Positions 2,236 through 16,046 of a DNA stretch of 64,000 bases are shown here, piece by piece; the stretch's first letter is position 1, and each line of letters opens with the position of its first letter. The position numbers and the translations under genes are program-made. The stretch comes from an uncultured Anaerolineales bacterium (GTDB taxonomy: Bacteria > Chloroflexota > Anaerolineae > CG2-30-64-16): positions 438-64,437 of the forward strand of contig CAYLZG010000001.1 in NCBI GenBank assembly GCA_964387985.1, read 5' to 3'. The notes beneath the pieces are model-generated. The model saw only the letters and a program-made list of their open reading frames with translations. It was not told the origin of the DNA and did not search any database.

Positions 2236-2240
2236 TCGCT

Positions 2241-5200
2241 TCAGGCGGCGCCAGGCACATCCAGAAAAGCCCTCGCCGCCACCAGGTCGGGAGCATCAAA
2301 GCCCTCGGTGAACCAGCCAACGATCTCGGCCAGTCGCCTTCTCGCCTCAACCTTCACGTCCGATCGCTGGGAGAGGCGAGCGCGGCTCAGAGCGGCGCGC
2401 AATTCCAGCGATCGTGATCCTTGCCGGCGGGCGAGGGAGAGGGATCGCTGGAAACAGGCCTCGGCATCGCCAGAGCCCTGGCGCGCCAGCAGCTCGCCCT
2501 TGACTCGATATATCTCCGGCGCCCATTCCAGTTCGCCCAGTCGGTGTGCTTTCTCCAGCAGTTCAGTAACCATTGCCAGGCCTTCTACCAGCTCGCCGCC
2601 CAGCCCAAGACCCTCGGCAAGGATGGTTGCATAGCGCAACTGGATCATCTCTGCTTGCAGCGTCGCCTCGAAGCCCTGGCGCAGATCGGCCAGGCCCTGC
2701 TGTATCTGCCCCAGCGAGAACAATGCCCAGCCCCGGTAAAGGGTCCCAACCGCCACCCACTGTCCAAACCCGTGCATCTGGCTGTACGCGATCGTTCGCT
2801 CTGCAAATCCCAGGGTCGTCTCCGCATCACGCATGCGCTGGTACAAGCCCGTAGTGAAGATCAGGGCATAGGCGATGGTAGCAGTGTGCTGGTGCTCCTC
2901 AGCACGCGCCAACGCCTCATTCATCCGGGCCCGGGCTTGATCGGCGTAGCCTAAGTACCACAAGACCTGCGCCTCATTGGCCGGACAACTGACCCCAGGA
3001 TCCTGGCCATAGAGGTGGGCATAAGAGCGATGCCGGTCGGCATCGTAGAGCTGCCCACCTCTGGCCAGGTACTTCTGCGCCCGTCTCATCCTGCCGGTCC
3101 GGTAGAGCGTGCAGCCCAGGGCCTCGCAAGTCTGCATCACAAGCGAAGTCTCCCCCATCTTCTGCGCGATCTGCAGGCACTCCTGGGCGAGGGCAAGGCT
3201 GGCAAGGGCATCGCCGCGCACCAGGTGCAAGCGCCACAGGCCCCACAGACCACGAAACAGTCGGGGCAGATCGTTCAGTTCACGGCAAAGCTGGTTCGAT
3301 CGCAGAAGTGCATCTTGCACGGGCAATGCAGTGTGCCTGTCAGCCATGGCGAGGGCCGTGGCGAGCCCCATTTGCAGATCCACTTCCAATGACCTGTGTT
3401 GGCCAGCAGCCGGAAGCTGGCCGAGCATCGCCAGGCCCCAGCGATAATAGGCGACCGCCTCTTCATTGGCCGACATCTGTAACGCGCGATCTCCGGCCAG
3501 GCAGGCGTATGGCATGGCCTGTTCGAGCAGATCCGCGCGCTCGAAGTGCTTCGCCAGCTGCCCCGCCACCACAGCAACCTGCTGTGGCTGATCCTGTGTC
3601 CGGGCTTGCAGCGAACGCGCGACTGACTCGTGTAAATGTCGACGCTCAGCAGCATCCAGGCCTTGATAGAGATACCTCTGAAACAGGATGTGCCGGAACC
3701 GGTAGTGCGAGAGATGCCGGCCGCCCACATTCTGGACGTCCACCGCCGTGACAAGTTGGTGTTGGCGACCCAACCCCTTGCTCAACTGGCGTATCAACTC
3801 GCCCACGTCGTGGCCCAGCACATCCGCGACTACCTCGGCCGTAAACTCCTCCCCCTCAACACCCGCTACCTCAAGGACAGCTCGCTGCGCTGGCGGCAGG
3901 CGGTCCATCCTTTCGCCGATCACCGCCTCCAGGCGAGACGGCAGGCCGTCCCAGTTCAGGGCAGGCCCTTCTCGCCAGCAGCCGGCAGCATCCTGAACAA
4001 GACCCTTGCGCTCCCGCATCGTCCGCACCAGCTCGACGGTGAAAAGAGGGTGGCCGTCGCTCAGGCGATGCAGTCTCTTCCGAAAGACCTCGCCGAGCGC
4101 GTTCGGCTCAAGATCGAGGTAGGCATCCACAAAGGGGCGGCTCTCGGCCCGGTCGAGATCGATATGCGATGCATCAAAGCGAGCCTGCAACTCGCGGAGT
4201 ACTTTTTCGAGAGGATGGCGCTCGCCGTTACGGCTCACTGCGACCTCTTCAGGCCGGTAGGTGCCGACGATCAGCAACGGATAACCGGAAAGTCGCTGCC
4301 CGAGGTGAAAAAGCATGGCGCTCGACGCCCGGTCCACCCAGTGCAGGTCATCGATCCACAGTAACAGGGGATTGCGGCATGCAAGCGCCTGCAGAACTCT
4401 CGTGAGTTGATCGAAGAGGGCCCTCTGCCCCGGCGCGGAGGTCCTGGCGTGCGCGAGCGTCTCAAGCTGCTGGCGCCAACGTTGCCCGCCAGGAAGAAGC
4501 GATACGCGAGCCGCCAATCCCTGGCCCGGAATCAGTGTCCCGGCCAGGTCCGGCCCGCAGGCAAGCAGGGCCTCCACAGCATCACCGAACACGGACCACA
4601 GGCGCGCCACGCGGTCCGGACCGATCGCACCCGCAATCCACTGCGCCTCAAGATCGCCAGTGATCTGGGCCAGGATCTCGTGGAATGGGAACAGGGCGTC
4701 GCCGACACCATCGTGACTACTGCAGGCGCCGCCGACCGCCACCAACCGAGCATGCTTTGTCTGCGCACGGGCGGCAAACGCCCTCAGGAGAACCGTTTTG
4801 CCTCGCCCTGCTTCGCCGGCCACGAAGACTACATTGCCCTGGCCAGATAGGGCGCGGTCCAGACGAGCATCCAGGAATGCCAGTTCACCTTCACGAGCCA
4901 GGCAGAGGGGTTCGAGCTGTGGAACGGCCGATGGCTCGGTGAGGAAGGCCGGCAACGTAACTGGCATGCCAGACCCGGCTGTTGGTCCGAACACAGTGCC
5001 CTCACCGCGACCGGTGGCATCCCTTGGGTAACGGCCGGCCTTGATTCGCTCATAGAGCTCGGTCATCTCTCGAGACGGGGTCGCGCCCAGCTCGGCTGAA
5101 AGCTGAGCGCGATAGCGAAGGTACTGAGTCAACGCTCCGTTGCTGTCTCCGCTGTTAGCTAACAATCGCACGAGTTGAAGATGACTCTCTTCCAAAAGAG

Positions 5201-5801
5201 GATCCAACTCAAGGCTCCGCCGGGCGTAGCGCTGCGCACTGGAGCTATTGCTGCGTCGTTCGTGCCACCTCGACAGAAAACAGGTTGCCTCGACGACCTT
5301 TCGACGCAGCTGCTCGCGGGTCAGCAACTGCCACTCCTCGAAGGCCGGGCAGCCGTCCAGGTAAAATCCCTCCATGAAATCGCCCCGGTAGAGCGCAACT
5401 GCCTCCTCCAGCCGCCTTGTGGTCTCCGGGGCTGCATCAATCTGCGTACGCTGGGGCAGGATTGAAAGAGTGTCCACTAATGTGGCTACATCCAGCCAGA
5501 AATCGCTCTCGCGATTGAACTGGATGGAATGCCGGTTGCTGATCAGGTAGGGTGAGGCGGTGGGCGCGGGCTCAAGAACCTGGCGCAGGTTTAGCAGAGC
5601 CTGGCGCAAGTAGGTGCGCGCCGCAGTCTCCGGCCAATCGGGCCAAAGCAGACCGGCCAGCTGCAGCCGCGTGTGGAGGCGGTCCTCTACTGCAAGATAG
5701 GCCAGTAATGCTCTGGTCTTGTTGGTTTCAAAGTGGGCGACGCGATTCTCGTTGAGTTGGGCTCGAAACGTACCGAGCAGATAGAGAGAAAACCCGGGCA
5801 T
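2241..5801 (-). CDS. AfsR-like regulator: SARP/BTAD DNA-binding domain + AAA/STAND-type ATPase + TPR repeats
   Basis: The N-terminus LLGTFRAQLNENRVAHFETNKTRALLAYLAV...YLRQALLNLRQVL is a winged helix. The BTAD-like segment is ALYRGDFMEGFYLDGCPAFEEWQLLTREQLR. Walker A is VAGEAGRGKT and Walker B-like is LLLWIDDLHW. The long helical C-terminal half is TPR-like. Confidence 0.85.
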   Translation of the reverse strand: MPGFSLYLLGTFRAQLNENRVAHFETNKTRALLAYLAVEDRLHTRLQLAGLLWPDWPETAARTYLRQALLNLRQVLEPAPTASPYLISNRHSIQFNRESDFWLDVATLVDTLSILPQRTQIDAAPETTRRLEEAVALYRGDFMEGFYLDGCPAFEEWQLLTREQLRRKVVEATCFLSRWHERRSNSSSAQRYARRSLELDPLLEESHLQLVRLLANSGDSNGALTQYLRYRAQLSAELGATPSREMTELYERIKAGRYPRDATGRGEGTVFGPTAGSGMPVTLPAFLTEPSAVPQLEPLCLAREGELAFLDARLDRALSGQGNVVFVAGEAGRGKTVLLRAFAARAQTKHARLVAVGGACSSHDGVGDALFPFHEILAQITGDLEAQWIAGAIGPDRVARLWSVFGDAVEALLACGPDLAGTLIPGQGLAARVSLLPGGQRWRQQLETLAHARTSAPGQRALFDQLTRVLQALACRNPLLLWIDDLHWVDRASSAMLFHLGQRLSGYPLLIVGTYRPEEVAVSRNGERHPLEKVLRELQARFDASHIDLDRAESRPFVDAYLDLEPNALGEVFRKRLHRLSDGHPLFTVELVRTMRERKGLVQDAAGCWREGPALNWDGLPSRLEAVIGERMDRLPPAQRAVLEVAGVEGEEFTAEVVADVLGHDVGELIRQLSKGLGRQHQLVTAVDVQNVGGRHLSHYRFRHILFQRYLYQGLDAAERRHLHESVARSLQARTQDQPQQVAVVAGQLAKHFERADLLEQAMPYACLAGDRALQMSANEEAVAYYRWGLAMLGQLPAAGQHRSLEVDLQMGLATALAMADRHTALPVQDALLRSNQLCRELNDLPRLFRGLWGLWRLHLVRGDALASLALAQECLQIAQKMGETSLVMQTCEALGCTLYRTGRMRRAQKYLARGGQLYDADRHRSYAHLYGQDPGVSCPANEAQVLWYLGYADQARARMNEALARAEEHQHTATIAYALIFTTGLYQRMRDAETTLGFAERTIAYSQMHGFGQWVAVGTLYRGWALFSLGQIQQGLADLRQGFEATLQAEMIQLRYATILAEGLGLGGELVEGLAMVTELLEKAHRLGELEWAPEIYRVKGELLARQGSGDAEACFQRSLSLARRQGSRSLELRAALSRARLSQRSDVKVEARRRLAEIVGWFTEGFDAPDLVAARAFLDVPGAA

Positions 5802-5852
5802 GGTCTTGCAGCCTCTCTAACCGGCGCTCAACTACGATATTCCTACGCTAGG

Positions 5853-5861
5853 ATTATACCA
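5853..5861 (-). promoter_or_regulatory. Extended -10 promoter element (TGgTATAAT) for the SARP regulator
   Basis: The minus strand reads TGGTATAAT about 52 nt upstream of the ATG at 5801. GAGG lies 11 nt before the ATG. The -35 is poor (GGCAAT/GGGCAA). Confidence 0.45.
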
Positions 5862-5908
5862 TACGGCAGCATCTATTGCCCACATTCATATCACACAGGG
5901 AGGTCCTC

Positions 5909-6811
5909 GTGAAAAAGATTCTGAGACTGGTCTTCATGTTACTGCTGGTCGGACTCCTCGTCGCCACAACCGCGGGCGCCGCCGCTCCCGCGCCAGACAC
6001 TGACCCGGAAGGCGTAATCCGCGCCATCTTCGGCGCGTTGAACGCAGGCGATGTCAAACTGGCAACTTCGTACCTAGCAGAGGATGCGGTGCTCGTCCTG
6101 CTGCCGCCAGCCATCGCTGCGCCTGATCCCAACGTCATCCAGGGAAAGGAGGCCATCTCCAAGTGGTGGACCTTCCTCGTGTCGGACAAGAGCGGCTTCG
6201 ACGTCTCGGGCTTCGACGTTGAGGGAAACAAGGTCACCTGGAAGGCCGCAATGACGGGTGCGTTCTTCACTGCCCTTGGCCTTGCACCCCTGCAGGCCGA
6301 GGGCATGGGAGTCGTCGAAGATGGCCTGCTAAAATCGTATATCTGGAATGTATCCAGCGAATCCATGGCACGTTTGGCTGCTGCTGCAGCACTGGCAGCA
6401 AACAAGGAAGTGGCAAGCAATTGGCTTGTAGCGTGGGAAAAGGGAGACAAGAAGGGGATGGAAGCGCTGCTCGCCAAGGACTTTGTCAACCACACGCCGC
6501 CCCTGCCGGAGGACCGGGAAGGGTTCATTGGGGCGGGAGTTGCTAGTTTCGAGCAGTTCCCCACAGGCAAGTACACCATCCAGAGTCTCATGACAGAGGG
6601 CGACATGGTGTCGGTCTTTGGAACTTTCGAAGGCGACCACACCGGAAAACCGTTCGAGGGAATTCCGGCCACAGGTGCCAAGGCGAACTTCAACTTTGCG
6701 CTGCTCTTCCGCATAAAGGATGGGCAGATTGTGGAGCGTTGGGCAGCATCCGAGAGTGTCACCGGCATGCTGTTGCCCTTGGGGTACCAATTAGTGCCGC
6801 CTCAGAAGTAG
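5909..6811 (+). CDS. Secreted protein with tandem NTF2-like / SnoaL-type (ester cyclase-like) domains
   Basis: Start moved to the GTG at 5909 (GGGAGG 5 nt upstream), giving the signal peptide VKKILRLVFMLLLVGLLVATTAGAAA. The second half (FVNHTPPLPEDREGF...GDHTGKPFEGIPATGAKANFNFALLFRIKDGQIVERW) is a classic SnoaL/ester-cyclase pattern. The first half is NTF2-like. Confidence 0.75.
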   Translation: MKKILRLVFMLLLVGLLVATTAGAAAPAPDTDPEGVIRAIFGALNAGDVKLATSYLAEDAVLVLLPPAIAAPDPNVIQGKEAISKWWTFLVSDKSGFDVSGFDVEGNKVTWKAAMTGAFFTALGLAPLQAEGMGVVEDGLLKSYIWNVSSESMARLAAAAALAANKEVASNWLVAWEKGDKKGMEALLAKDFVNHTPPLPEDREGFIGAGVASFEQFPTGKYTIQSLMTEGDMVSVFGTFEGDHTGKPFEGIPATGAKANFNFALLFRIKDGQIVERWAASESVTGMLLPLGYQLVPPQK

Positions 6812-6822
6812 ACTTGCCCCGA

Positions 6823-6858
6823 GTGGTCCGGCGTGGAGGGCATGGCCCGCCGGACCAC
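6823..6858. terminator. 11-bp perfect inverted repeat between convergent genes (terminator-like)
   Basis: GTGGTCCGGCG (6823-6833), a 14-nt loop, then CGCCGGACCAC (6848-6858). A short CCGG hairpin followed by TTTCTCC comes after it on the plus strand. There is no clean U-tract directly after the main stem. Confidence 0.4.
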
Positions 6859-6884
6859 GAGCCGGCGGGCCGGTTTCTCCTGTC

Positions 6885-9746
6885 TCAGCGCCTCAGGTCA
6901 GCCAGGTTTCCGCCATCGCGCTTGATGACGACACACGTCACATCGTCGGCCGGCTCCGTGTCGTTGATGAAGCCCGCCAGTGCGCCGGTGATCGCCCACA
7001 AGATCTCCTGTGCACTGCCCCCGGCATTTGCCCTTATGACATCGAACAGGCGCTGCTCACCGAATTCCTCGCCGTCGGCATTGAGGGCATCGGTGACGCC
7101 ATCGGTGTAGAGCACCAGAGCATCACCCGGTGCGAGATCCACACGGTCATCCCGCAGGCTGATGTCCTCGAACGTGCCGAGGATGATCCCGCGCTGAGTC
7201 AGCTCGCTCAGCGTGCCACTGGCCGCCCGATAGAGCAAGGGCCGGGTGTGGCCCGCGTTGGTGTAGGCCACGCGGCCGGTGCCGGTTTCGATCACCAGGT
7301 AAACCGCGCTCAGGAACAGGTCGGCCTGGCTGTCGGCCAGGATCAGCTGGTTCGCGCGCATGAGTGCAGACGCCGGACCTCGTCCGGTAAAAGCAACGCT
7401 TCGTATGATCGTCCTGCTCAGGGCCATGAACAACGCAGCAGGCACACCCTTGTCAGCCACGTCCGCAATCACGACGCCAAGGCGGGCCGGCGGACCGGGC
7501 AGGTCGCAGAAGTCGTAAAAATCGCCTCCCACCGTGCGCGCGGCCTGATAGACGGCCTCGAACTGCCATCCTTGAATCTCCGGACACACCTTCGGCAGCA
7601 GGCTCAGCTGGATCTCCCGACCGACCGACAGCTCGGCCAGCTTTCGCGCCAACGCCTCATCCGTCCGACGCAGCAGCAGCATGTTGTGCACCGCGATCGC
7701 CACCTGATCGGCAAAACCAGAAAGAGTCCGCTTATGTTCGTCGGAAAGGCGCGCGCGGCCGGCCGCGTACCCCAACTCCAGCACACCGAGCTGTTCGCCC
7801 CCGGCTGCCAGGGGCAGAAACACGCGCACAAAGCGGTGGAGGCCGAAACGATCGAACAGGGCGCGATCTTGAGCATCTTCACCACCGCGCGTGGTAATCA
7901 TCCGGGCATTCGCCAGCGCAGTCACGGCAGGGTGTTGGCTGTTGAGAGGGAAGTGCGCCTGCGATTGCCATTCCTGGGTGACCACCTTGCCCACGCCGGC
8001 AGCCATATCGAGCTGGCGATGCCCATCATCCGTGAGATACAACACCCCGTAGTCGCACCCCAACGCCTCGGCGATCGTGTCCAGCACGCGCTCGACAGTC
8101 GGCTGCATGGCCTTGGCATCCAGCACGGCCTGTCCGATGGCGCGGTACGCCACGCGCGTGATCACGTTTTCCAGCGCACCCGCTGCATGCTGCAGATAAC
8201 GCAGCAGATCAGGCAGCTCCTCCGGCAATTCGTGAGGATCGCGATCCTGCACGTAATGCTCGACGGTCACCACACCCAGCGGGCGATTGGTCGAGGCAAG
8301 GCAAACCACGAGGCGCGCCTCATCTGTGCTGCCCCGGAGGGCATAGTTACCCAGGTTGAACGTTTGGGCCTCGACGCAGCCAGGGTCGCGCAGGTCGACA
8401 TGCGCAGGCTGCCCGTTTCCTGACGCCGGATGCACTTTCTGCAACTGCGCCGCCGCGGGAAGTGCGCGGTAAATGCTGATGTCCGACAGTCCGAAGCCCA
8501 GCCGGAGCCCATCAGCCAGCAGCCCATACGCCTGCTCCAACGAGTCGCTGGCATAGATCGACTGGACAATAGCCTCAAGAAGCTGAGGACGGGCCAGGTG
8601 GACACGCTGAGGCGCCAGGTAGGCAATGGCCTCCCGCCATCGCCCGGCGATGCGCAGCACATGACCGACCCGATCTGTGCTGAAGTGAGCGGCCAGCCCT
8701 CTCCGATATGCCTCGTTCAAGAAGGTGTAGCATCCGTCCGCCAGCAGGACAGCACCCGAAAGCTGCAGGCGATCTGCCCCGGTTCGCGTGGGCGCCTGGC
8801 GAGAATGGATGCGCGGCAGCGACCCGTTGTCCAGGAGGTGCAGGACATCCAGGATTGTGTCCGGATCCTCTTCGATCATCCGGATCGCGGCACGCACCGG
8901 CGGCGGCGGTCCGTGTGCCACCAGCGCTGCGCCAGCCCGTTCCACGATTGCTGACGTCACACGGTGATACCGGTGGAGACGGACCAATTCGGAAGCATCG
9001 GCACATAGGCGTGAGATCAGGTACCGGTCGCCGGCGGCCCATTTCAGGAGATATTCCATGCCGCGGGACGATGCCGAACACTCGTATGCCTCCAACGAGG
9101 CCTGCACCAGCGCGCGGCTTTGCTCCGCGGTTAGTGGCTCGGCGACCACAGGCTTGGCAATATTGAAGGGCGATGTAGGGCCGGTGGAGAGGCCCACCAG
9201 GTTAATGCCGCCTGCAACCACCGCCACCAGGCTGTGCGGCGCATCTGCTTCGCGCTCCATGTACGCCGCGCGCAGCGCAACAAGCAAGCTATGAACAAGA
9301 TCGTGCGGTAATGCCTGCAGGTGATCGATCAGCAGGGCGAGGTTGGTGTTGCTGCTGTTCGCGGTGAGGGCCAGGTAGCTCTGAAAGCTGCGTGCATCGG
9401 CGATTCCTTCGCCGCGGTCCGAGTGGATGGGCGGTGCGGCGTCGCCCAATTCGCTGTCGATCAAGTCGGCCAGGCTTGTGAAGAAGACCGCCTCATCGTT
9501 CGATCGGGTGCGCCACAGATCGACGTGTAACGGCCGGAAACGCCCGCTTTGCTTCAGTGCTTCGGCCACATCGCGCAACAAATAGCTCTTTTCGCTCATG
9601 GGTGGGCCCAACAGCGCGACACATTCGTCGTTCATCAGCCGGCGGACAACCGTGCGCACCCGCGCCTCATCACGCACCCGCACCCGCTTGAACGGCGATG
9701 CCTCTTCGTACGGAACCACGCGCCAGGGAGGCGCTCCTCTGGACAT
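6885..9746 (-). CDS. Degenerate P-loop NTPase module fused to two GAF-like domains and a SpoIIE/PP2C Ser/Thr phosphatase
   Basis: The C-terminus carries PP2C/SpoIIE motifs (GGDFYDF, VIADVADKGVPAALFM, LVLYTDGVTDA, DDVTCVVIKR). Two central GAF-like regions are present. The N-terminal ~270 aa are colinear with the NTPase core of the upstream gene, but Walker A reads GPPMSEKS and Walker B reads LLIDHLQ. The start is coupled to the upstream stop (TAG ctc ATG) with AAGAGGG 11 nt upstream. Confidence 0.8.
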   Translation of the reverse strand: MSRGAPPWRVVPYEEASPFKRVRVRDEARVRTVVRRLMNDECVALLGPPMSEKSYLLRDVAEALKQSGRFRPLHVDLWRTRSNDEAVFFTSLADLIDSELGDAAPPIHSDRGEGIADARSFQSYLALTANSSNTNLALLIDHLQALPHDLVHSLLVALRAAYMEREADAPHSLVAVVAGGINLVGLSTGPTSPFNIAKPVVAEPLTAEQSRALVQASLEAYECSASSRGMEYLLKWAAGDRYLISRLCADASELVRLHRYHRVTSAIVERAGAALVAHGPPPPVRAAIRMIEEDPDTILDVLHLLDNGSLPRIHSRQAPTRTGADRLQLSGAVLLADGCYTFLNEAYRRGLAAHFSTDRVGHVLRIAGRWREAIAYLAPQRVHLARPQLLEAIVQSIYASDSLEQAYGLLADGLRLGFGLSDISIYRALPAAAQLQKVHPASGNGQPAHVDLRDPGCVEAQTFNLGNYALRGSTDEARLVVCLASTNRPLGVVTVEHYVQDRDPHELPEELPDLLRYLQHAAGALENVITRVAYRAIGQAVLDAKAMQPTVERVLDTIAEALGCDYGVLYLTDDGHRQLDMAAGVGKVVTQEWQSQAHFPLNSQHPAVTALANARMITTRGGEDAQDRALFDRFGLHRFVRVFLPLAAGGEQLGVLELGYAAGRARLSDEHKRTLSGFADQVAIAVHNMLLLRRTDEALARKLAELSVGREIQLSLLPKVCPEIQGWQFEAVYQAARTVGGDFYDFCDLPGPPARLGVVIADVADKGVPAALFMALSRTIIRSVAFTGRGPASALMRANQLILADSQADLFLSAVYLVIETGTGRVAYTNAGHTRPLLYRAASGTLSELTQRGIILGTFEDISLRDDRVDLAPGDALVLYTDGVTDALNADGEEFGEQRLFDVIRANAGGSAQEILWAITGALAGFINDTEPADDVTCVVIKRDGGNLADLRR

Positions 9747-9749
9747 GAG

Positions 9750-11288
9750 CTAGATGCCCTCTTGAAGTACTTTGCGGAACAGATAGTCCACGTCGTAGTT
9801 CTCGCTCAGCATGCGCGGGAAGACCGGCGTGGCGAATCGAAACAAAGGGCCGCGCGAAGTGAACGTGCCGGCCAGTTCCAGGTTACGACAAGCCAGATCC
9901 AGATCGGAAAGCGGAATCTCAACCCCGCGGCGTTCCAAAGCCCCGTCGATCTGCTGCACGCCGAAGGGATGCTCTGCGCCCAGGTCGGCCATTACGGCGA
10001 ACACGATGGCCTTTTCCAGATGGGTCGTGTTATCCATGAAGGTGCTCAGCACAAACGCCCGGAAGTCGTCATTGCCGTACACATCGAACAGGCTCTCAGG
10101 CGACACTCTCCGGCTGCCGTCGCGGTCCAGGCGCTCCACGAGGATGCTGCAGTAGAACTGGATCAGGTTCGGCTGGCCGGCGGTTTCATCGAAAACACGA
10201 TTGACAACATCGTTCCGGCGCTCGAATTGAACACCCAGCCGCTCGAGAGGTCCGAGGATCATCGCGGCAGCCTGTTCTCGACTGAATTCTTTAAGCCGGA
10301 CCGGCCTGGCGAAGTTGTACAACGGTGAATCGAGATCGCTGAATGCGCGCATCACCTCGCGAAAGCCGCCGACGATGTAGCGTGAGTGACCCTGGTTGCT
10401 GGACGCGCGCAGTGCATTGAGCAGAGCATCATCCTCATAATGCCATGTGAGCACCTTATCGAATTCGTCGAGGAAGAATACGATGGGGCCACCGTAGCGC
10501 TGCGACATCCTTTGGAGGAAATCGGGAAAGAAGATGGGATACTGCTTGGACGAGAGGCGCGTCAGTTCCTGGGGCCGCAGCTTGCGCACGACCTCCTGGA
10601 TGAAGTTATTCGGCGACGCGATCGCACTGCAATCCATGAAGATGATGCGCTCCAGGGATTCCTCGCTTTCCGCATCTTGCGCCTGTTCCTTGAGCTGCCG
10701 CTCGATCTCGCGCATCAACGATGTCTTGCCGATGCGCCGGATCCCCATGATCGCAAAGTTGCTGTCAGGTGTCTGGAGAATGCGACGCACCTCGAACTCG
10801 CGGCCGAAGAATCGCGAGCCAGTGACAGGCTTGCTGGTCTCGTAAGGCGTAAGCAGGGAGAGATCCAGCTGTGGCGCAAGGCGATCGAGCAGCTCGCCCG
10901 AAGGCCGGCGCGACTCGCGTATGGCCCGAACGTCCGTCTCATCCAGCACCAACAGCGGCTGGTAGGTGGCACGCAACTGCTCCTTCAGCGCGTCTCCCGG
11001 ACCCTGCACGACAAGAATGGTGTTTCGCTCTGCCAGCGACTGCGCGCGCACCAGGTCGGTGAGCCCCTGGGCCAGGTCGCGCGCGCTCATCTCTGCCAGG
11101 TCCGACTCCTTCACATAGATCAGGGGCGTGCGGTCGGAGAAACGCAGCTTCCAATCCGACAAGTCGACCAGGTACAGATCATAGCCCAGCACTTCTTTGT
11201 GCAGCTTGACCTTGTGCCCGAGGGTCCCATCAAGCAACTGCAGGAATTCCGGCATCGACTGACGCCACGAGGTTTTGACCGCGGTCAT
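9750..11288 (-). CDS. P-loop NTPase (ORC/Cdc6- or STAND-like, archaeal-ATPase type) with an unassigned ~160-aa N-terminal domain
   Basis: Walker A is IMGIRRIGKTSL and Walker B is VFFLDEFD. Helical/winged-helix-like C-terminal region. SD GAGGGGAG lies 5 nt before the ATG. Confidence 0.75.
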   Translation of the reverse strand: MTAVKTSWRQSMPEFLQLLDGTLGHKVKLHKEVLGYDLYLVDLSDWKLRFSDRTPLIYVKESDLAEMSARDLAQGLTDLVRAQSLAERNTILVVQGPGDALKEQLRATYQPLLVLDETDVRAIRESRRPSGELLDRLAPQLDLSLLTPYETSKPVTGSRFFGREFEVRRILQTPDSNFAIMGIRRIGKTSLMREIERQLKEQAQDAESEESLERIIFMDCSAIASPNNFIQEVVRKLRPQELTRLSSKQYPIFFPDFLQRMSQRYGGPIVFFLDEFDKVLTWHYEDDALLNALRASSNQGHSRYIVGGFREVMRAFSDLDSPLYNFARPVRLKEFSREQAAAMILGPLERLGVQFERRNDVVNRVFDETAGQPNLIQFYCSILVERLDRDGSRRVSPESLFDVYGNDDFRAFVLSTFMDNTTHLEKAIVFAVMADLGAEHPFGVQQIDGALERRGVEIPLSDLDLACRNLELAGTFTSRGPLFRFATPVFPRMLSENYDVDYLFRKVLQEGI

Positions 11289-11315
11289 AGCGCTCCCCTC
11301 AATCGCATCGATCCT

Positions 11316-12704
11316 CTACGTCTCCAACAACAACGGCTCACGAGCGGTGCTCATGCGAACCAGGTCGAACTGAACCATCACCCAACACAGGCGGGGCAGC
11401 ACCACCGCAGGAATGCCCACCTGTTCGGCAAGAGAGATCACCCGTTCTTTGCTGAGCGAACTGCCGTTTTCGGGAAGCAGATCATAGAGACGGGCGGCGA
11501 GGCGCGCCGTTTGCTCGACACCGATCGGCGCGCTGTCCCAACGACCACGACCGGCATTCCACACGCAGGTGAGCCGGCCGGCTTCACGCTCGGTGCGGGC
11601 TGCGCTGCGCCCGACCTGGGCTACGCTCTCCCACCAACCGACAGGCACGGTTGTGCTGCGATGGTCGAGCCGCCAGTCACCTTCATTGATACGCCAGTCG
11701 CCGCGTTTCATGATGAGCCGGCCATTGACATAAACAGTCGGCTTCTTGACTATCATATCGCAATGGACCACCGATTCGACATCGCCGCCCAGGCCTGCAC
11801 TGTTGCCGAGCGCGATGTGGATCGTGTGATCCTTCTTCTCATCCACGACACCCACGCCTGTTAGCTCGTGCACGGCCGGATTCAGGCCAAAGCCGACTTC
11901 GGCGAGATTCGACCAGTTGGTATCGCCCCGGCGCTCGGCATGAGAAAACTGCGACTCAGAGAGGTAGCGCGCAACCGGGCTGTCCCCCGGCTCAATCGCC
12001 GCCAGCCTGCCCTCGCGGAACGTCAGCAGCATTTCCTCGCCCGGACCAAGCACCTTGCCGGGAACAGAGCCATTGATCACAATGCAGCCATCGCCATCGC
12101 GGGGCACAAAATTGACCTCGCCGGGCGGAAGTGTGCTCCACGAGCCTTCGCGAATCACACCGTCATTGATACCCGGCGGATAGGCCCAGCCGCCCACCCT
12201 CACATTAAGCCGGTGCTCACGGCGGCGGCTGTCCGTCGTCACGATTTCGATCCGCTTGCCCAGGATCAGGGCCAGGCTGAGAATCTGGGCCTGCTCGCCG
12301 ATTGCGGCATAGTCCGTGTCCACCGTTTTCAGCATCTCGACGTTCAGACCCGGGGCATGGGCCAGCTTGGCCCGGCGGCCCCAACTGGCATGCAACACGC
12401 GCATCCGGTAGTGCAGATGCTCGGGGTGATCGGACAGGCAGCTCAAAATCGCATCCGCTTCGCGCACCGCCGCCTCAGTAGGCAGCGGCAGGCTTTCAAA
12501 GGGTCCCATGTCGAGCTGCAACACCCGCGGCACAAAAAAGGCGGTCGTTGAAATGCGGAGATCGCGCGCGACCCGCGCCACAATCTCGATCACGTCCAGC
12601 GATGCAACGTCCGCAAAAACCAGCAGGTTCTGATCCCGTCTCAGGCCGAAAGAGCCGACCAGGAGGTTATGTACGGCGCGGGACAGCTTGGCATTGTCAG
12701 TCAC
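11316..12704 (-). CDS. M29 (aminopeptidase T/PepS)-like protein with an extra ~100-aa C-terminal extension
   Basis: The pattern LPPGEVNFVP..DG.IVINGSV...FREGRL...NLAEVGFGLNP...VVDEKKDHTIHIALGN matches the M29 thermophilic metalloprotease family as I remember it. GTG start with GGAG 6 nt upstream, 3 nt after the stop of the upstream gene. Confidence 0.65.
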   Translation of the reverse strand: MTDNAKLSRAVHNLLVGSFGLRRDQNLLVFADVASLDVIEIVARVARDLRISTTAFFVPRVLQLDMGPFESLPLPTEAAVREADAILSCLSDHPEHLHYRMRVLHASWGRRAKLAHAPGLNVEMLKTVDTDYAAIGEQAQILSLALILGKRIEIVTTDSRRREHRLNVRVGGWAYPPGINDGVIREGSWSTLPPGEVNFVPRDGDGCIVINGSVPGKVLGPGEEMLLTFREGRLAAIEPGDSPVARYLSESQFSHAERRGDTNWSNLAEVGFGLNPAVHELTGVGVVDEKKDHTIHIALGNSAGLGGDVESVVHCDMIVKKPTVYVNGRLIMKRGDWRINEGDWRLDHRSTTVPVGWWESVAQVGRSAARTEREAGRLTCVWNAGRGRWDSAPIGVEQTARLAARLYDLLPENGSSLSKERVISLAEQVGIPAVVLPRLCWVMVQFDLVRMSTAREPLLLET

Positions 12705-12707
12705 GAA

Positions 12708-13664
12708 CTACTCCAGGACTTTCGTGATCGTCGAGTCGCCCGCCATTGCTTCAAGCACCGGCAGGCCGAACCCTTCATACTCGCTGAGAAACAACACGCC
12801 TTCTGCGAGGGCGTAGAGGGCAGGCTTGTCTGCCTCCTCCACCCAACCCGCAAGGTGCACGTGCTCACCCAGACCAAGCTCAGCAACCATCAACCTGGGA
12901 TCCGGCACGACTGCCGAATCGACCGCCGGCAGCCTGCCCGCAATGACGAGCATGGGACAAGGGGTTCCTTCGGCAGAGCAGCGGACAACAAGGCGAGTAT
13001 AGCCCTCAAGCGTCCGCCGGAGGTTCTTGCGCGCGTCAAAGCCACCTAAGTATAACAAAAAAGGCCCTTCGGGCAGCCTGTAGCGGGACCGCACGGCCGC
13101 CAGGTGCTCGGGCGCAGGCGGGATGCTGGCGGACGGCGCAACAGCCAGGTGGATCGCATGAACTCGTTTTGCAGGAATAGACAGATAACGGACGATGTCT
13201 TGACGGCTCGCCTCGGAATCGGTCAGAACGGCCGATGCTCGACGCGCGGTTCGGGACACCAGTCGCGTGTATGCGCGTTGGGCAGCCCCGCCCCGATAAA
13301 GCGGGAGCAGTAAGGGAATCAGATCATGCACAGTCACAACGACCGGGCACGGCCGCCACCAGGGCGAACCCCAGTAGGGCACGAACGCCACATCCGCTTG
13401 ATTTCGAACACATGTTCGCGGAAAGGTCACCTGCTCGAACCAAAGCTTTGCCAGGTCCGGGTTGACCCGATCGAAGGGCGTTGCCACATCAACCACCTGC
13501 CAACCCTCTGGCAACGGGCCTGTGCGCGAATTGGTCCGGGAGCAGACCAGGGTGAGCTGATGAGAGCGGTCCGTACGTGGCAGCGACTCCGCCAGCGCAG
13601 CCAGATACTGTCCGCTTCCAGCAGCCATCTGTTCCCAGAACCAACCATTGACGACAATTCGCAT
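12708..13664 (-). CDS. Glycosyltransferase family 4 (GT-B), apparently C-terminally truncated (possible pseudogene)
   Basis: The start is taken at MRIVVNGWFW (13664), which avoids overlap with the upstream GH2 gene. Typical GT4 blocks are present (PFLLYLGGFDARKN, SEYEGFGLPVLEAMA). The ORF stops 10 residues after EAMA, where homologues normally continue for several dozen residues. Confidence 0.7.
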   Translation of the reverse strand: MRIVVNGWFWEQMAAGSGQYLAALAESLPRTDRSHQLTLVCSRTNSRTGPLPEGWQVVDVATPFDRVNPDLAKLWFEQVTFPRTCVRNQADVAFVPYWGSPWWRPCPVVVTVHDLIPLLLPLYRGGAAQRAYTRLVSRTARRASAVLTDSEASRQDIVRYLSIPAKRVHAIHLAVAPSASIPPAPEHLAAVRSRYRLPEGPFLLYLGGFDARKNLRRTLEGYTRLVVRCSAEGTPCPMLVIAGRLPAVDSAVVPDPRLMVAELGLGEHVHLAGWVEEADKPALYALAEGVLFLSEYEGFGLPVLEAMAGDSTITKVLE

Positions 13665-13702
13665 ATGATTCCCGGAGAGAATAGTCGATCCGAAACGATA
13701 TG

Positions 13703-15988
13703 TCAACCGATTCGCAACATCAGGTCTGCACCCCGGCGCAGCAGCCATGCCCGTACGGTCTGCCGCGGCGGCTGATAGACTCCGAGATCGTAGCAGTTGC
13801 TCGCGATGATACGTTCATTCTCAGCCAGGGCCAGCTCCAGTTGTGACGGACACGCCGCCAGGGTCACGGCAAAGGAGCCCACCAGCTGGGCAGCAAGCGG
13901 GCGGATCACCAGGTCGCCAACTGCCAGGACGACCTCACCGTCCAACGCCGCCTTGACCGCGCATCCCTCGAAGCTTTGGGGCCCGTCGTTGACCCACCAG
14001 ATTTCCGCCTCGAACTTCTCGCCGGGCCGCCACGCACGCCAATCGAACATGGCGGCAATCAGCAGCGGCTGGTACGATCGGCAGAGCATCGCGTATGCGC
14101 CCTTTGGACGCCCATGCCGGTCCACCACTGCCCAGGTCACCGCGGGCCACGGCTCATTGAATTGCCAAAACGCGACGCCGCCACATGGACTTCGGTGCCC
14201 CGAGCCCTCCCTCCTCAGGCGACTGGCCTCGATTCCCCTTTGGAGTCCTGCTGCCTGGGCGCGTTGCGTGGCCCCAATTGTGGCCACCAAGTCACGCTCG
14301 TCCAGCGGCCCGCTGTAATAGCGGATCTTGGCGGCCTGCAGCTTGCGTTGAGCCCAACGCGCATCGTCCAGCGATCGGGGCGCGCTTCCCTCAAAAAAAG
14401 TCCGAACGGTATCCGCATGCGGCAGCGCCTGCAGGCCGAACTCGCTCATAAACGGCGCCCTGACCCGGCCGAGAGATTCCCAGGGCGCCAGGCCGTGCCA
14501 CACATCCCACTGGTGCACGTCGCCCTGCGAAGGCGAGGCAGAAATCCAGGGTCGCGTCCCATCCTCGGCCCCAATCACCTGCTCAATAATACGCAGCGGG
14601 AGCCGTTCACGTCGCGGATTGACCTCATTGCCGCCGCACCAGGCGATCAGGGAAGGACGTCCGCGCAGCGCAGCCACGATGCCCCGGGCTTCGGAAGCGA
14701 GCGCGCCGAGGTACTGCTCATCGCGGGGATAGTGGTCCAAGAACGCACAGGCGAGCGGGAACTCCTGCATGGCCATGATGCCCCGGCGGTCACACTGCTC
14801 CCAGAACGCGGCCTTCTCGCGGATGCCGCCTCCCCAAACGCGCAGGAAGTTGATGCCTGCATCCCGTGCGAGGCCGGCCATGCGCGCGTAATCACTGGGG
14901 CTCACACGGCCGGGCAGGATATCTCCGGGAACCCAGTTGGCGCCACGCAGAAACACGGGACGACCATTGACGATGAAGCGCCATGGATGCCCGTTCGCCA
15001 GCCGGTCGCGTGACACGGAGCGAACCCCCGCCGTGATCTCGATCTCATCCAGGGGGCCGGACTCGTCGTTGATGCGGATGATGATCCGGTAGAGGTGAGG
15101 ATGGCCCTGGTCCCACGGCCACCAGCGTCGCGCGGCGGGCATATCGACGGTGAATGACTGGATCACCTCATCTGTCAGGGCATACGGACCTGCCGTTGCC
15201 CCATCGCCATCGCCTCCGGCATCGCAGATCGCCAGGTCCAGCCAGGGCGCAGCCTCTTGCACTCGCTGAACCCGCACCCGGATGTGCCAGCGGACCGGCG
15301 TCGGATCGCCGGATTCGGACAGTGGTTCAGCCCAGGCCCAGGCGTCGGCGAGGTAGGCACGCCGGCAGCGCACCAATCGGATATCGTCCCAGATGCCGGT
15401 GCTCAGGACGCGCGGAGAGAAGTCCCAACCAAAGCCAAACTGCGCCTTCGGTGTTGCCATCCGGTCGGGAAAGTACTCGGTGGCCATGCCACGCCTGCAC
15501 AACAGGCCGCGCACCACGCGACGTGATCGGGAATCCGTCGGGAGCGGCAGCGCTCCGCCGCCCCAAATCCGAATCGCCAGCTCGTGCGGACCGGCTCCGT
15601 TCAGGTGCGGCGAGAGGACTATCGATTGCCGGGCGAACATGCCGGCATTCTGCGCAAGGCATGCCCCATCGAGCCAGACGCTACTGGCGTAATCGATGCC
15701 GTCTGCCTCCAGCACGACTGTCGTGTCGCTGCCGGCTGCTTCGAGCGTAGTGCGATACCACCAATCGTAATCATCGACCCATGCACTCTGTGCGATGCCC
15801 TCCGGTGTGTCCAGAGAGGTGATGCGACCGGCTGCCAGGAGGTCTGCGCGGATATCGCCCGGAACGCGTGCGGGCAGCCACGAGGCAACCGTTGAACGGT
15901 CGTCGACGGGCTGGAGCATGAATGGTTGGCGGTCGACCTGGCCCACCTGCCAACCAGCGGATGCAAGATCGAGAATGTCACGCGCCAT
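13703..15988 (-). CDS. Glycoside hydrolase family 2 (beta-mannosidase-like)
   Basis: GH2 blocks are WCGGNEVNP (acid/base Glu) and FMSEFGLQALP (nucleophile Glu). The start is moved to the ATG at 15988 (MARDILDL) because a TGcTATCAT extended -10 lies inside the longer GTG-initiated extension. Confidence 0.8.
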   Translation of the reverse strand: MARDILDLASAGWQVGQVDRQPFMLQPVDDRSTVASWLPARVPGDIRADLLAAGRITSLDTPEGIAQSAWVDDYDWWYRTTLEAAGSDTTVVLEADGIDYASSVWLDGACLAQNAGMFARQSIVLSPHLNGAGPHELAIRIWGGGALPLPTDSRSRRVVRGLLCRRGMATEYFPDRMATPKAQFGFGWDFSPRVLSTGIWDDIRLVRCRRAYLADAWAWAEPLSESGDPTPVRWHIRVRVQRVQEAAPWLDLAICDAGGDGDGATAGPYALTDEVIQSFTVDMPAARRWWPWDQGHPHLYRIIIRINDESGPLDEIEITAGVRSVSRDRLANGHPWRFIVNGRPVFLRGANWVPGDILPGRVSPSDYARMAGLARDAGINFLRVWGGGIREKAAFWEQCDRRGIMAMQEFPLACAFLDHYPRDEQYLGALASEARGIVAALRGRPSLIAWCGGNEVNPRRERLPLRIIEQVIGAEDGTRPWISASPSQGDVHQWDVWHGLAPWESLGRVRAPFMSEFGLQALPHADTVRTFFEGSAPRSLDDARWAQRKLQAAKIRYYSGPLDERDLVATIGATQRAQAAGLQRGIEASRLRREGSGHRSPCGGVAFWQFNEPWPAVTWAVVDRHGRPKGAYAMLCRSYQPLLIAAMFDWRAWRPGEKFEAEIWWVNDGPQSFEGCAVKAALDGEVVLAVGDLVIRPLAAQLVGSFAVTLAACPSQLELALAENERIIASNCYDLGVYQPPRQTVRAWLLRRGADLMLRIG

Positions 15989-15999
15989 GTGAGACCGGC

Positions 16000-16008
16000 A
16001 TGATAGCA
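16000..16008 (-). promoter_or_regulatory. Extended -10 promoter (TGcTATCAT) for the GH2-GT4-cassette operon; very short leader
   Basis: The minus strand reads TGCTATCAT. There are 11 nt between the hexamer and the ATG at 15988. Confidence 0.5.
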
Positions 16009-16046
16009 CAGCGAAAGGAAGCACAGGAAAACGGAAGAGAGATGCC

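Follow-up and report, generated by a model that had tools for sequence, protein, structure and literature searches.

Organization of the locus

The DNA considered here is a stretch of 64,000 nucleotides (called the window throughout) from contig CAYLZG010000001.1 of an uncultured Anaerolineales bacterium of the Chloroflexota. Between positions 6885 and 12704, the window carries three consecutive genes on the reverse strand. In order of transcription they encode a metallopeptidase-like protein (gene 1), an AAA+ ATPase (gene 2), and a protein in which an eroded relative of that ATPase is fused to GAF and PP2C phosphatase domains (gene 3). The operon that these genes form is real and conserved among filamentous Chloroflexi, and it seems not to have been described before. 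The operon is interpreted here, with a probability of roughly 60%, as a cytoplasmic signaling module in which two co-produced paralogous Orc1/Cdc6-like or ATPase_2-like AAA+ proteins (MNS-STAND type) switch an output domain. The genes and their parts are as follows.

11316-12704, reverse strand: gene 1, 462 amino acids, GTG start; metallopeptidase-like protein of the M29/NicX superfamily
11691-12704, reverse strand: gene 1 residues 1-338; M29/NicX-like core
11319-11690, reverse strand: gene 1 residues 339-462 (about 124 amino acids); C-terminal extension specific to the cassette-linked clade
9750-11288, reverse strand: gene 2, 512 amino acids; stand-alone AAA+/MNS-STAND-type ATPase with intact motifs
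10845-11288, reverse strand: gene 2 residues 1-148; orphan alpha/beta N-terminal domain
10149-10811, reverse strand: gene 2 residues ~160-380; AAA+ core, from motifs and secondary structure
10719-10745, reverse strand: gene 2 residues 182-190; Walker A, GIRRIGKTS
10458-10478, reverse strand: gene 2 residues 271-277; Walker B, FFLDEFD
9753-10148, reverse strand: gene 2 residues 381-512; predicted C-terminal helical/winged-helix region
6885-9746, reverse strand: gene 3, 953 amino acids; eroded ATPase-like module, GAF, and PP2C
8937-9746, reverse strand: gene 3 residues 1-270; ATPase-like module paralogous to the gene 2 core
9585-9608, reverse strand: gene 3 residues 47-54; P-loop, GPPMSEKS
9315-9335, reverse strand: gene 3 residues 138-144; Walker B, LLIDHLQ
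8127-8936, reverse strand: gene 3 helical linker (residues 271-394) and weakly GAF-like region (residues 395-540); constant part of the gene 3 family
7683-8102, reverse strand: gene 3 residues 549-688; GAF domain (GAF_2 53.2, GAF_3 45.2, and GAF 41.8 bits)
6918-7490, reverse strand: gene 3 residues 753-943; PP2C/SpoIIE domain (SpoIIE 170.8 bits, E 4e-50)

The junctions were read directly. A gap of 3 nucleotides with GGAG upstream separates the stop codon of a glycosyltransferase (GT4) gene from the GTG of gene 1. The gap between genes 1 and 2 is 27 nucleotides, with GAGGGGAG located 5 nucleotides before the gene 2 ATG, and the gene 3 ATG follows gene 2 after 3 nucleotides, with AAGAGGG upstream. 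A preliminary description made from the window's letters alone had reported three co-directional genes with gaps of 27 and 3 nucleotides and their own Shine-Dalgarno sequences downstream of GH2 and GT4 genes; the open reading frames (ORFs) and junctions match it. The window is nearly identical to two metagenome contigs of the Joint Genome Institute (Ga0265406_1004709 and Ga0265427_1002635), with gene 2 being 100% identical, and its closest genome relatives are metagenome-assembled genomes (MAGs) of Anaerolineae-type Chloroflexota. Two ORFs on the forward strand, at 7248-8423 (391 amino acids) and 10386-11864 (492 amino acids), lie opposite genes 3, 2, and 1. They look like an artifact of coding sequence with about 62% G+C rather than genes because their translations are of low complexity and rich in Arg, Ala, and Gln.

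Gene 2 encodes an intact ATPase with an orphan N-terminal domain

The gene 2 protein exceeds the Pfam cut-offs for AAA_22 (43.7 bits; cut-off 27), nSTAND1 (39.6; 27.1), and TniB (31.2; 22.4), and its match to ATPase_2 (28.7 bits) lies below the cut-off of 33.2 bits. NCBIfam matches it to orc1/cdc6, and sequence matches in the PDB are to ORC4. The Walker A and B motifs are canonical, and residues G182, K188, S190, D274, and E275 are invariant among the 31 members of the gene 2 alignment (A2). The AlphaFold2 model of the protein (predicted local distance difference test score, pLDDT, 81.6) has as its top Foldseek matches the archaeal proteins SSO1545 (2fna) and PABY2304 (2qen), both at E 6e-10, followed by Orc1/Cdc6 (E 2e-8) and the origin recognition complex (ORC). 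Since the best matches of the model are ATPase_2, Orc1/Cdc6, and ORC proteins, gene 2 is predicted to have an AAA+ base, a lid, and, at the C-terminal side, a region that superimposes on the winged-helix end of these proteins.

The N-terminal domain of gene 2 is modeled well on its own (pLDDT 88.5; predicted template modeling score 0.82). It has no Pfam match at E<=10 and none in a profile search of the PDB, and Foldseek finds nothing below E 0.05 in the PDB or in the viral set BFVD. The top structures in the weak range (E 0.06-0.6) are MUS81-EME1, EcoO109I, EndoMS, and FANCM-FAAP24, which are nucleases of the PD-(D/E)xK/ERCC4 type. Without a conserved D...(D/E)xK motif, the domain is not called a nuclease here. 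Its DLSDWKLRFSD loop was also considered as STAS-like, a reading rejected because the predicted topology differs. A profile of the domain recovers 120 proteins among 1.84 billion representatives; the near-full-length matches (about 490-530 amino acids) have the domain at the N terminus, and a few outliers have other lengths. Given this small number of matches and the N-terminal placement in the near-full-length ones, the domain is essentially private to the gene 2 family. The preliminary description had placed an intact NTPase core behind an N-terminal domain of no assignable family, and the motifs and the searches agree with both statements for a domain of 148 amino acids.

Gene 3 carries an eroded paralog of the gene 2 core

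The first ~270 residues of gene 3 had been aligned with the gene 2 core in three blocks. Pairwise BLASTP reproduces all three blocks at a marginal E of 0.005, and comparison of profiles with hhalign (A2, 31 gene 2 homologs; A3, 22 gene 3 N-terminal regions) relates the two regions with a probability of 98.3% (E 2.2e-14, 245 columns). The profile alignment places residues 145-402 of gene 2 on residues 9-267 of gene 3. It recovers all three blocks as well and includes a shared PYE motif before the P-loop and a SPLYNF/SPF-NI block. A hidden Markov model (HMM) of the gene 3 N-terminal region finds gene 2 at E 6e-13 and another STAND ATPase of related loci at E 0.0085, and it does not match the AAA_16 domain of a SARP-type regulator encoded nearby in the window. 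Additionally, homologs of gene 3 match ATPase_2 and AAA_35 directly. The sequence comparisons thus make a solid case that the NTPase modules of genes 2 and 3 are specifically related as paralogs.

The catalytic motifs of the gene 3 module are altered as first described, with Glu in place of the Gly before the P-loop Lys (GPPMSEKS) and Asp-His in Walker B (LLIDHLQ). Across the gene 3 family, the P-loop always has the form G-x5-K-[ST], and Gly47 and Lys53 are invariant. The residue before the Lys is the canonical Gly in the clade with short PP2C proteins, in locus L046, and in an Acidobacteriota protein (L049); it is Glu in the window's clade, and Asn, Ser, His, or Arg in the clade with histidine kinase outputs. 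In Walker B, the first acid is Asp, occasionally Glu, and the second position is His, Ser, or Asp. Because Gly47 and Lys53 are invariant and the first Walker B acid is nearly always retained, the module probably binds nucleotide, with hydrolysis that would be poor or absent. The module therefore seems to be a site that lost efficient hydrolysis in several lineages. The label "degenerate" that was first given to it is apt for the eroded catalytic residues but not in the sense of a dead relic.

Residues 271-540, which follow the module, have no Pfam match and are conserved in both PP2C-type and kinase-type homologs as judged by tblastn. Residues 270-395 weakly resemble the gene 2 C terminus (hhalign probability 24%). 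Residues 395-540 align by hhalign to the GAF domain with a probability of 59% (E 9e-5), a weak match. Thus, of two GAF-like regions proposed in the preliminary description, the one at residues 549-688 is significant and the one at residues 395-540 is only weakly GAF-like. The fusion to a SpoIIE/PP2C phosphatase is borne out by the domain score, and the acidic motifs GGDFYD, ADVADKG, YTDG, and DDVT are all intact.

Gene 1 encodes an M29-like protein with a private tail

The gene 1 protein of the window has no Pfam match even at E<=10 and none in NCBIfam or PDB sequence searches. Its M29 affinity becomes apparent solely through homologs and profiles. Three cassette homologs are above the 27-bit cut-off of Peptidase_M29 (P0095 with 32.1 bits, P0047 with 29.3, and the L049 homolog with 46.8), and the profile of the gene 1 family (A1) matches NicX (PDB 7cn3) at E 6.5e-4. 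Homologs are annotated as aminopeptidase T and have matches to PF02073 or PF26233 (NicX). The protein was aligned with plain M29-like relatives of 317-327 amino acids from Bacillota, Ignavibacteria, and archaea. The candidate metal ligands E196 (PPGE), E269 (AEVGFGLNP), H296 (TIHIALG), and H314 and D316 (HCD) are all kept and are common to the cassette proteins and the plain relatives. They correspond to what we take, as a lead, to be the M29 ligand set in AmpS and AmpT structures, which is Glu, Glu, His, His, and Asp.

The plain relatives stop at window residue 338-339, so the cassette protein has an extra tail of about 124 amino acids. In tblastn searches, the tail matches only in loci that also carry gene 2. 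It has no significant Pfam or PDB match, its sub-threshold matches being to winged-helix domains (MCM WH, DprA_WH, and Z-alpha), and hhalign detects no relation to gene 2, gene 3, or the N-terminal domain of gene 2. The initial assignment of gene 1 as M29-like with a tail of ~100 amino acids thus holds by way of homologs and profiles and with a somewhat longer tail, but not by any Pfam match of the window protein itself. In Thermoanaerobaculia (L047, 748-3390) and Acidobacteriota (L049, 8795-11353), the M29-like protein is 850-880 amino acids long; these versions have ~400 additional N-terminal residues without a Pfam match.

Conservation of the cassette

Loci were collected with gene 1 as the anchor, using one genome per species and mapping the parts by tblastn. 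In all 46 loci with a tailed gene 1 (31-89% identity) and room downstream, the next gene on the same strand is gene 2, and contigs that extend further also have the gene 3 N-terminal module after it. Neither gene 2 nor gene 3 is present in the 33 loci whose M29-like gene is plain (22-32% identity, without the tail). The cassette first described from a single sequence thus recurs in many genomes with the order of its three genes kept. It is carried by Chloroflexota (Anaerolineae, Caldilineae, Promineifilaceae, and Ca. Leptovillus) and is also found in single MAGs labeled Acidobacteriota, Thermoanaerobaculia, PVC, and Burkholderiales. The junction between genes 2 and 3 is mostly a 3-nucleotide gap or a 4-nucleotide overlap, which suggests that the two genes are translationally coupled. 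The core of gene 2 is 79-96% identical where gene 1 is 50-89% identical, making it the slowest-evolving and most conserved part of the cassette.

In the converse scan, metagenomes were anchored on gene 2 and the loci were re-analyzed with HMMs. The gene 3 module follows gene 2 in 21 of the 23 metagenome loci with at least 1 kb downstream, the other 2 having broken genes. An M29-like gene lies before gene 2 in only 6 of the 27 loci with at least 1.5 kb upstream; elsewhere this place is taken by other genes, for example a methyltransferase or NADH dehydrogenase subunits. On these counts, the obligate core is the ATPase pair, and the tailed M29-like protein is a dependent accessory that is never seen without the pair. 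Any role it has is then not essential in cis, as it is missing beside most sampled gene 2/gene 3 pairs, for example on the 254-kb contig Ga0073934_10000096.

Two other arrangements were seen. In Ca. Amarolinea aalborgensis (L167; GCA_900491745.1), positions 1-9720, directly upstream of the pair, encode an MmeI-type restriction-modification enzyme, BrnT/CopG and PIN toxin-antitoxin genes, and transposases, so that an insertion-prone stretch resembling a defense island occupies the place held elsewhere by the M29-like gene. Distant operons (L127, at 354-3460; L153; L154; and L143) contain two consecutive ATPase_2-like paralogs of ~490-516 amino acids and have no N-terminal domain, no detected adjacent M29-like gene, and no output fused to the second gene. 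The second gene of these operons matches the gene 3 N-terminal HMM at E 1e-16 to 1e-23, and such operons may represent an ancestral bare pair.

Gene 3 has swappable outputs

The constant N-terminal ~540 residues of gene 3 are joined to differing C termini across homologs. The output is GAF-PP2C in the window's clade (~940-1000 amino acids), PP2C alone in proteins of ~780 amino acids, and one to four GAF domains plus a histidine kinase, with an H-box before HATPase_c, in proteins of 764-1639 amino acids. Versions from Acidobacteriota and PVC end in a calcineurin-like phosphoesterase (Metallophos). This census was drawn from the fetched loci; a search of a 5.8-billion-protein set with the gene 3 N-terminal profile returned 32 mostly short or fragmentary proteins, which made it unusable for the purpose.

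Directly after gene 3, 13 kinase-type loci have a gene for a receiver domain joined to TCAD9, a domain that resembles APH and protein kinases. A gene for an AAA_16-type STAND protein recurs in 11 loci of the kinase clade. The AAA_16 STAND gene scanned with Pfam in L046 has a C-terminal Trans_reg_C domain, and that of L167 has AAA_16 only. These neighbors suggest that the kinase clade has a five-gene system whose last components would be a kinase-like effector and, possibly, a transcription factor of the STAND type. Both the GAF-PP2C and the kinase/TCAD9 variants therefore point to control of a downstream phosphorylation state. The succession of a kinase-type gene 3 and a receiver-TCAD9 gene was noted in L022, L024, L027, L031-L033, L035, L038, L040, L041, L044, L046, L050, and L167.

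In several MAGs (loci L009, L015, L018, and L024, with gene 3 homologs of 400-491 amino acids; proteins P0242-P0249), the constant part of gene 3 forms a separate ORF of ~480-490 amino acids, and the GAF-PP2C part lies downstream of it. The cause may be a genuine split or frameshifts in long-read assemblies.

Flanking genes

The cassette is flanked by the following features.

12708-13748, reverse strand: GT4 gene (Pfam); upstream context, not part of the core
13703-16024, reverse strand: GH2 gene (Pfam); upstream context, not part of the core
6843-6872, no strand assigned: GC-rich hairpin of 11 base pairs (10 G-C), lying where gene 3 and the SnoaL-like gene converge
5876-6811, forward strand: SnoaL-like gene, convergent with gene 3
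2241-5801, reverse strand: SARP gene (BTAD, AAA_16, and TPR; Pfam), 1186 amino acids

The hairpin was picked up in a terminator scan on its consensus alone and is the probable end of the operon. A GT4 gene lies upstream in 17 of the cassette loci closest to the window (gene 1 identity ~56-89%) and a GH2 gene in 16, and neither is present in more distant cassette loci. The longest GH2 and GT4 ORFs overlap by 46 nucleotides (13703-13748), and public gene calls use later starts for both (318 amino acids for GT4 and 761 for GH2). In the sister contig L165, GH2 is split into two ORFs. In close relatives, the flanks are syntenic housekeeping genes (prephenate dehydrogenase, M50 peptidase, and an ABC transporter), and there are no signs of mobility.

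The SARP and SnoaL-like genes are absent from every related cassette locus, with weak matches in two distant metagenome loci. A gene with an LTD domain directly follows gene 3 in L001, and the SnoaL-like and SARP genes intervene at this place in the window's contig (L164). Together, they (2241-6811) look like a two-gene lineage-specific insertion. The preliminary description had pointed to the SARP protein as a third STAND-like ATPase about 1 kb away. The gene is real and lies 1084 nucleotides from gene 3, but its link to the module is unsupported and was rejected: relatives have neither the SARP nor the SnoaL-like gene, and the two sit between gene 3 and the LTD-domain gene. As a thematic echo, which is likewise unsupported, the SARP protein recalls the AAA_16-type STAND genes of the kinase clade.

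Proposed mechanism

Gene order, paralogy, motif states, domain swapping, and conservation are observed in the loci themselves, and a heteromeric AAA+ switch is the best fit to them because of the tight coupling of the two genes, their specific paralogy, the constraint on gene 2, and the swapping of outputs. We infer that the gene 2 and gene 3 proteins assemble as a hetero-oligomer in which information would pass from the first to the second. Gene 2, as the catalytically competent ATPase, would supply ATP turnover and set the nucleotide state of the assembly. The gene 3 module would act as a non-hydrolyzing partner that relays this state through the helical/GAF linker. The relayed state would then switch the C-terminal output on or off. 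In the window this output is a PP2C Ser/Thr phosphatase; elsewhere it would be a histidine kinase that feeds the receiver-TCAD9 kinase-like protein, or a calcineurin-like phosphoesterase. The likeliest part of the M29-like protein, whose candidate metal site is complete, is to provide or tune the input. It could, for instance, bind or trim a cue made of peptide or amino acid, or its tail could dock on the ATPase pair.

The preliminary description had proposed that an active/degenerate NTPase pair with a peptidase partner acts as a nucleotide-dependent switch whose output is Ser/Thr dephosphorylation. Architecture and evolution give good support to the part concerning an intact ATPase and an eroded, output-bearing paralog. 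The peptidase, in contrast, proves to be an accessory rather than an obligate member. Dephosphorylation, for which the window encodes an intact PP2C, is only one of at least three interchangeable outputs.

Several points weigh against the switch. The contact between the gene 2 and gene 3 proteins is deduced from their genes and not from experiment or structure. What the input is can only be guessed, as neither the gene 2 N-terminal domain nor the gene 1 tail has recognizable relatives. In the PP2C clade, no nearby gene encodes a candidate for the presumed phosphatase substrate, for example a STAS protein or conserved kinase. In gene 2, the position of the ORC box VII appears to be occupied by Asn325. 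In the window's clade, the Glu that precedes the P-loop Lys might prevent the gene 3 module from binding nucleotide at all. Lastly, the M29-like gene is absent upstream of gene 2 in 21 of the 27 metagenome loci, and Ca. Amarolinea aalborgensis also has no adjacent gene 1.

A wider reading of the same pair, which is possible yet considerably less probable than the switch itself, is that it represents a previously unrecognized class of cytoplasmic sensor. The N-terminal domain and the M29-like co-factor would detect an intracellular cue, such as a peptide or an N terminus or, possibly, nucleic acid, and would pass it to interchangeable outputs of the two-component, PP2C, or PPP type. Either route, through a histidine kinase and receiver-TCAD9 or through PP2C, would ultimately set the Ser/Thr phosphorylation of a downstream target. 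The target could be a STAND-type transcription factor, candidates being the AAA_16 STAND proteins in 11 kinase-clade loci and the AfsR-like SARP beside the PP2C of the window.

Alternative explanations

The three genes might instead serve the GH2 and GT4 genes upstream, with the M29-like protein acting on a glycopeptide or envelope substrate and the ATPase pair regulating the synthesis of the envelope or exopolysaccharide of the filament. The co-directional GT4 and GH2 genes, 3 nucleotides from gene 1, and the retention of the upstream GT4 in 17 related Anaerolineae loci and of GH2 in 16 speak for this view. The linkage is gone, however, in all cassette loci beyond those 17, and elsewhere the gene 2/gene 3 pair lies behind unrelated genes for a methyltransferase or NADH dehydrogenase subunits. 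Envelope control is thus unlikely to account for the cassette; it may be a lineage-specific use, which would leave the module itself unexplained.

A STAND-type biological-conflict system (anti-phage or abortive), in which the pair senses an invader and the fused domain is the effector as in nSTAND2 operons or Avs, is slightly less likely still. Its design is the same as that of the nSTAND2 operon, where an active STAND NTPase is paired with an inactive paralog bearing variable C-terminal modules (PMC8195603). Gene 2 is above the Pfam cut-off for nSTAND1 and two homologs have faint nSTAND2 matches, the Ca. Amarolinea pair adjoins an MmeI-type restriction enzyme, toxin-antitoxin genes, and transposases, and the weak structural neighbors of the N-terminal domain are nuclease-like. 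Against this, there is no credible PADLOC match, the best (E 5e-4) covering 30 residues. The outputs are signaling domains (PP2C, histidine kinase with a cognate receiver protein, and GAF) rather than toxins, and the N-terminal domain lacks a conserved D...(D/E)xK motif. The gene 2 core is under strong purifying selection, with up to 96% identity between species, and the locus of close relatives is syntenic with housekeeping genes and without signs of mobility. The conflict-system flavor that the preliminary description gave to the cassette is not upheld, given the PADLOC result, the housekeeping synteny, and the selection on gene 2.

Equally improbable is a nucleic-acid-associated factor resembling ORC/Cdc6 that binds DNA with its winged helices and nuclease-like N-terminal domain and reports the state of the chromosome or nucleoid to a phosphatase or kinase. 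After the archaeal ATPase_2 proteins, the best structures are Orc1/Cdc6-DNA complexes and ORC subunits, which agrees with the ORC4 matches in the PDB, the NCBIfam match to orc1/cdc6, and the predicted winged-helix-type C-terminal region of gene 2. The sub-threshold winged-helix matches of the gene 1 tail and the nuclease-fold neighbors of the N-terminal domain (MUS81-EME1, EcoO109I, and EndoMS) point the same way. However, these links to nucleic acid are by fold resemblance alone, with N-terminal domain matches that are not significant (E >= 0.05); winged helices of STAND and ATPase_2 proteins often mediate protein contacts, and no DNA-metabolism genes are found among the conserved neighbors. 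The null hypothesis of operon neighbors without functional coupling, for which nothing specific speaks, is made very unlikely by the comparative data, as order and strand are kept across Chloroflexota classes and into Acidobacteriota and PVC, with start and stop codons tightly spaced or overlapping while all flanking genes change.

Implications

Bacterial signaling is mostly understood through small ligand-binding inputs such as PAS, GAF, and Cache domains. The ATPase pair looks like a new input module for bacterial signaling rather than a defense system. It is a conserved two-subunit ATPase input that is wired to three chemically different outputs in different lineages; therefore, the pair itself looks like the sensor or timer. 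If the heteromeric switch is correct, the paired design known from nSTAND2 operons, so far only in predicted conflict systems, would extend to ordinary regulation. The cassette adds a metallopeptidase-like co-factor that is unexplained and a domain without recognizable relatives. The parts of the cassette are individually familiar, and the functions given to them here are predictions throughout. The hosts are abundant filamentous Chloroflexi of wastewater and sediments, including Ca. Amarolinea and MAGs assigned to Promineifilaceae and Ca. Leptovillus, and there is no cultured host among the retrieved loci. To our knowledge, the regulation of these filamentous bacteria is essentially undescribed.

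Comparison with known systems

The cassette matches no named system, including partner-switching and defense systems, and the preliminary description had likewise found no named match; PADLOC, the neighboring genes, and the literature agree on this. PADLOC-DB 2.0 has no match for genes 1 and 3, and for gene 2 it gives two marginal P-loop matches (E 5e-4, covering only ~30 residues, and E 7e-4). A partner-switching system of the RsbU/V/W or SpoIIE/AA/AB type was rejected on the absence of STAS and anti-sigma genes, with none within 10 kb on either side of gene 2 in the Pfam-annotated window contig and no STAS antagonist or anti-sigma Ser kinase among the conserved neighbors of 47 loci. No description of this three-gene cassette was found in the literature.

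The PP2C phosphatases RsbU, RsbP, and SpoIIE belong to the same catalytic family as gene 3, whose motifs are intact. In both cases, an N-terminal regulatory region and a separately encoded partner are expected to control the PP2C. RsbQ and RsbP form an enzyme-plus-sensor pair, in which the hydrolase RsbQ may be likened to the M29-like protein. The regulator differs, being an ATPase pair in the cassette and RsbT, a PAS domain, or the stressosome in Rsb systems. Furthermore, the regulator of the cassette drives histidine kinases in other species.

The archaeal ATPase_2 (PF01637) proteins SSO1545 and PABY2304, of the MNS clade of STAND NTPases, and Orc1/Cdc6 are the best structural matches of gene 2, with which they have in common an AAA+ base, a lid, and a C-terminal winged helix (Foldseek E 6e-10 to 1e-7). 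Homologs of gene 3 match ATPase_2 at E 3e-6 to 9e-5. ORC likewise combines active and degenerate ATPase subunits. However, the sequence identity of gene 2 to these structural matches is just 12-17%. The archaeal proteins, whose function is unknown, stand alone and have no N-terminal domain of the gene 2 type, no output-bearing paralog, and no peptidase-like neighbor.

Gene 1 appears to belong to the same fold family as the M29 aminopeptidases (AmpS, AmpT, and PepS) and the NicX dioxygenase. It has the E, E, H, H, D pattern at positions that align with plain M29-like proteins, and in HMM alignment its E269, H314, and D316 fall on NicX His265, His318, and Asp320. It differs from both in that the window protein lies below Pfam detection and has the ~124-residue C-terminal extension, which is limited to the cassette-linked clade.

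The closest design precedent is the nSTAND2 two-gene operon. Kaur, Iyer, Burroughs, and Aravind (2021, eLife 10:e70394; PMC8195603, in the section on GT4 domains) described it as an active STAND NTPase and an inactive paralog fused to variable effectors. The nSTAND2 operon and the window pair are alike in having adjacent paralogous genes for STAND-type NTPases, one of them intact, and in the fusion of the eroded copy to variable C-terminal modules, and a heteromer is predicted for both. The NTPase family differs, as gene 2 matches AAA_22, nSTAND1, and ATPase_2; neither NTPase of the window matches nSTAND2 at E<=0.01, and faint PF20702 matches are limited to two homologs. The variable modules are GT4 and HEPN effectors in nSTAND2 operons and PP2C, histidine kinase, Metallophos, and GAF domains in the cassette family. 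Unlike nSTAND2 operons, the locus of the window is syntenic in close relatives, highly conserved, and not mobile, and its ATPase pair is accompanied by an M29-like partner and a unique N-terminal domain.

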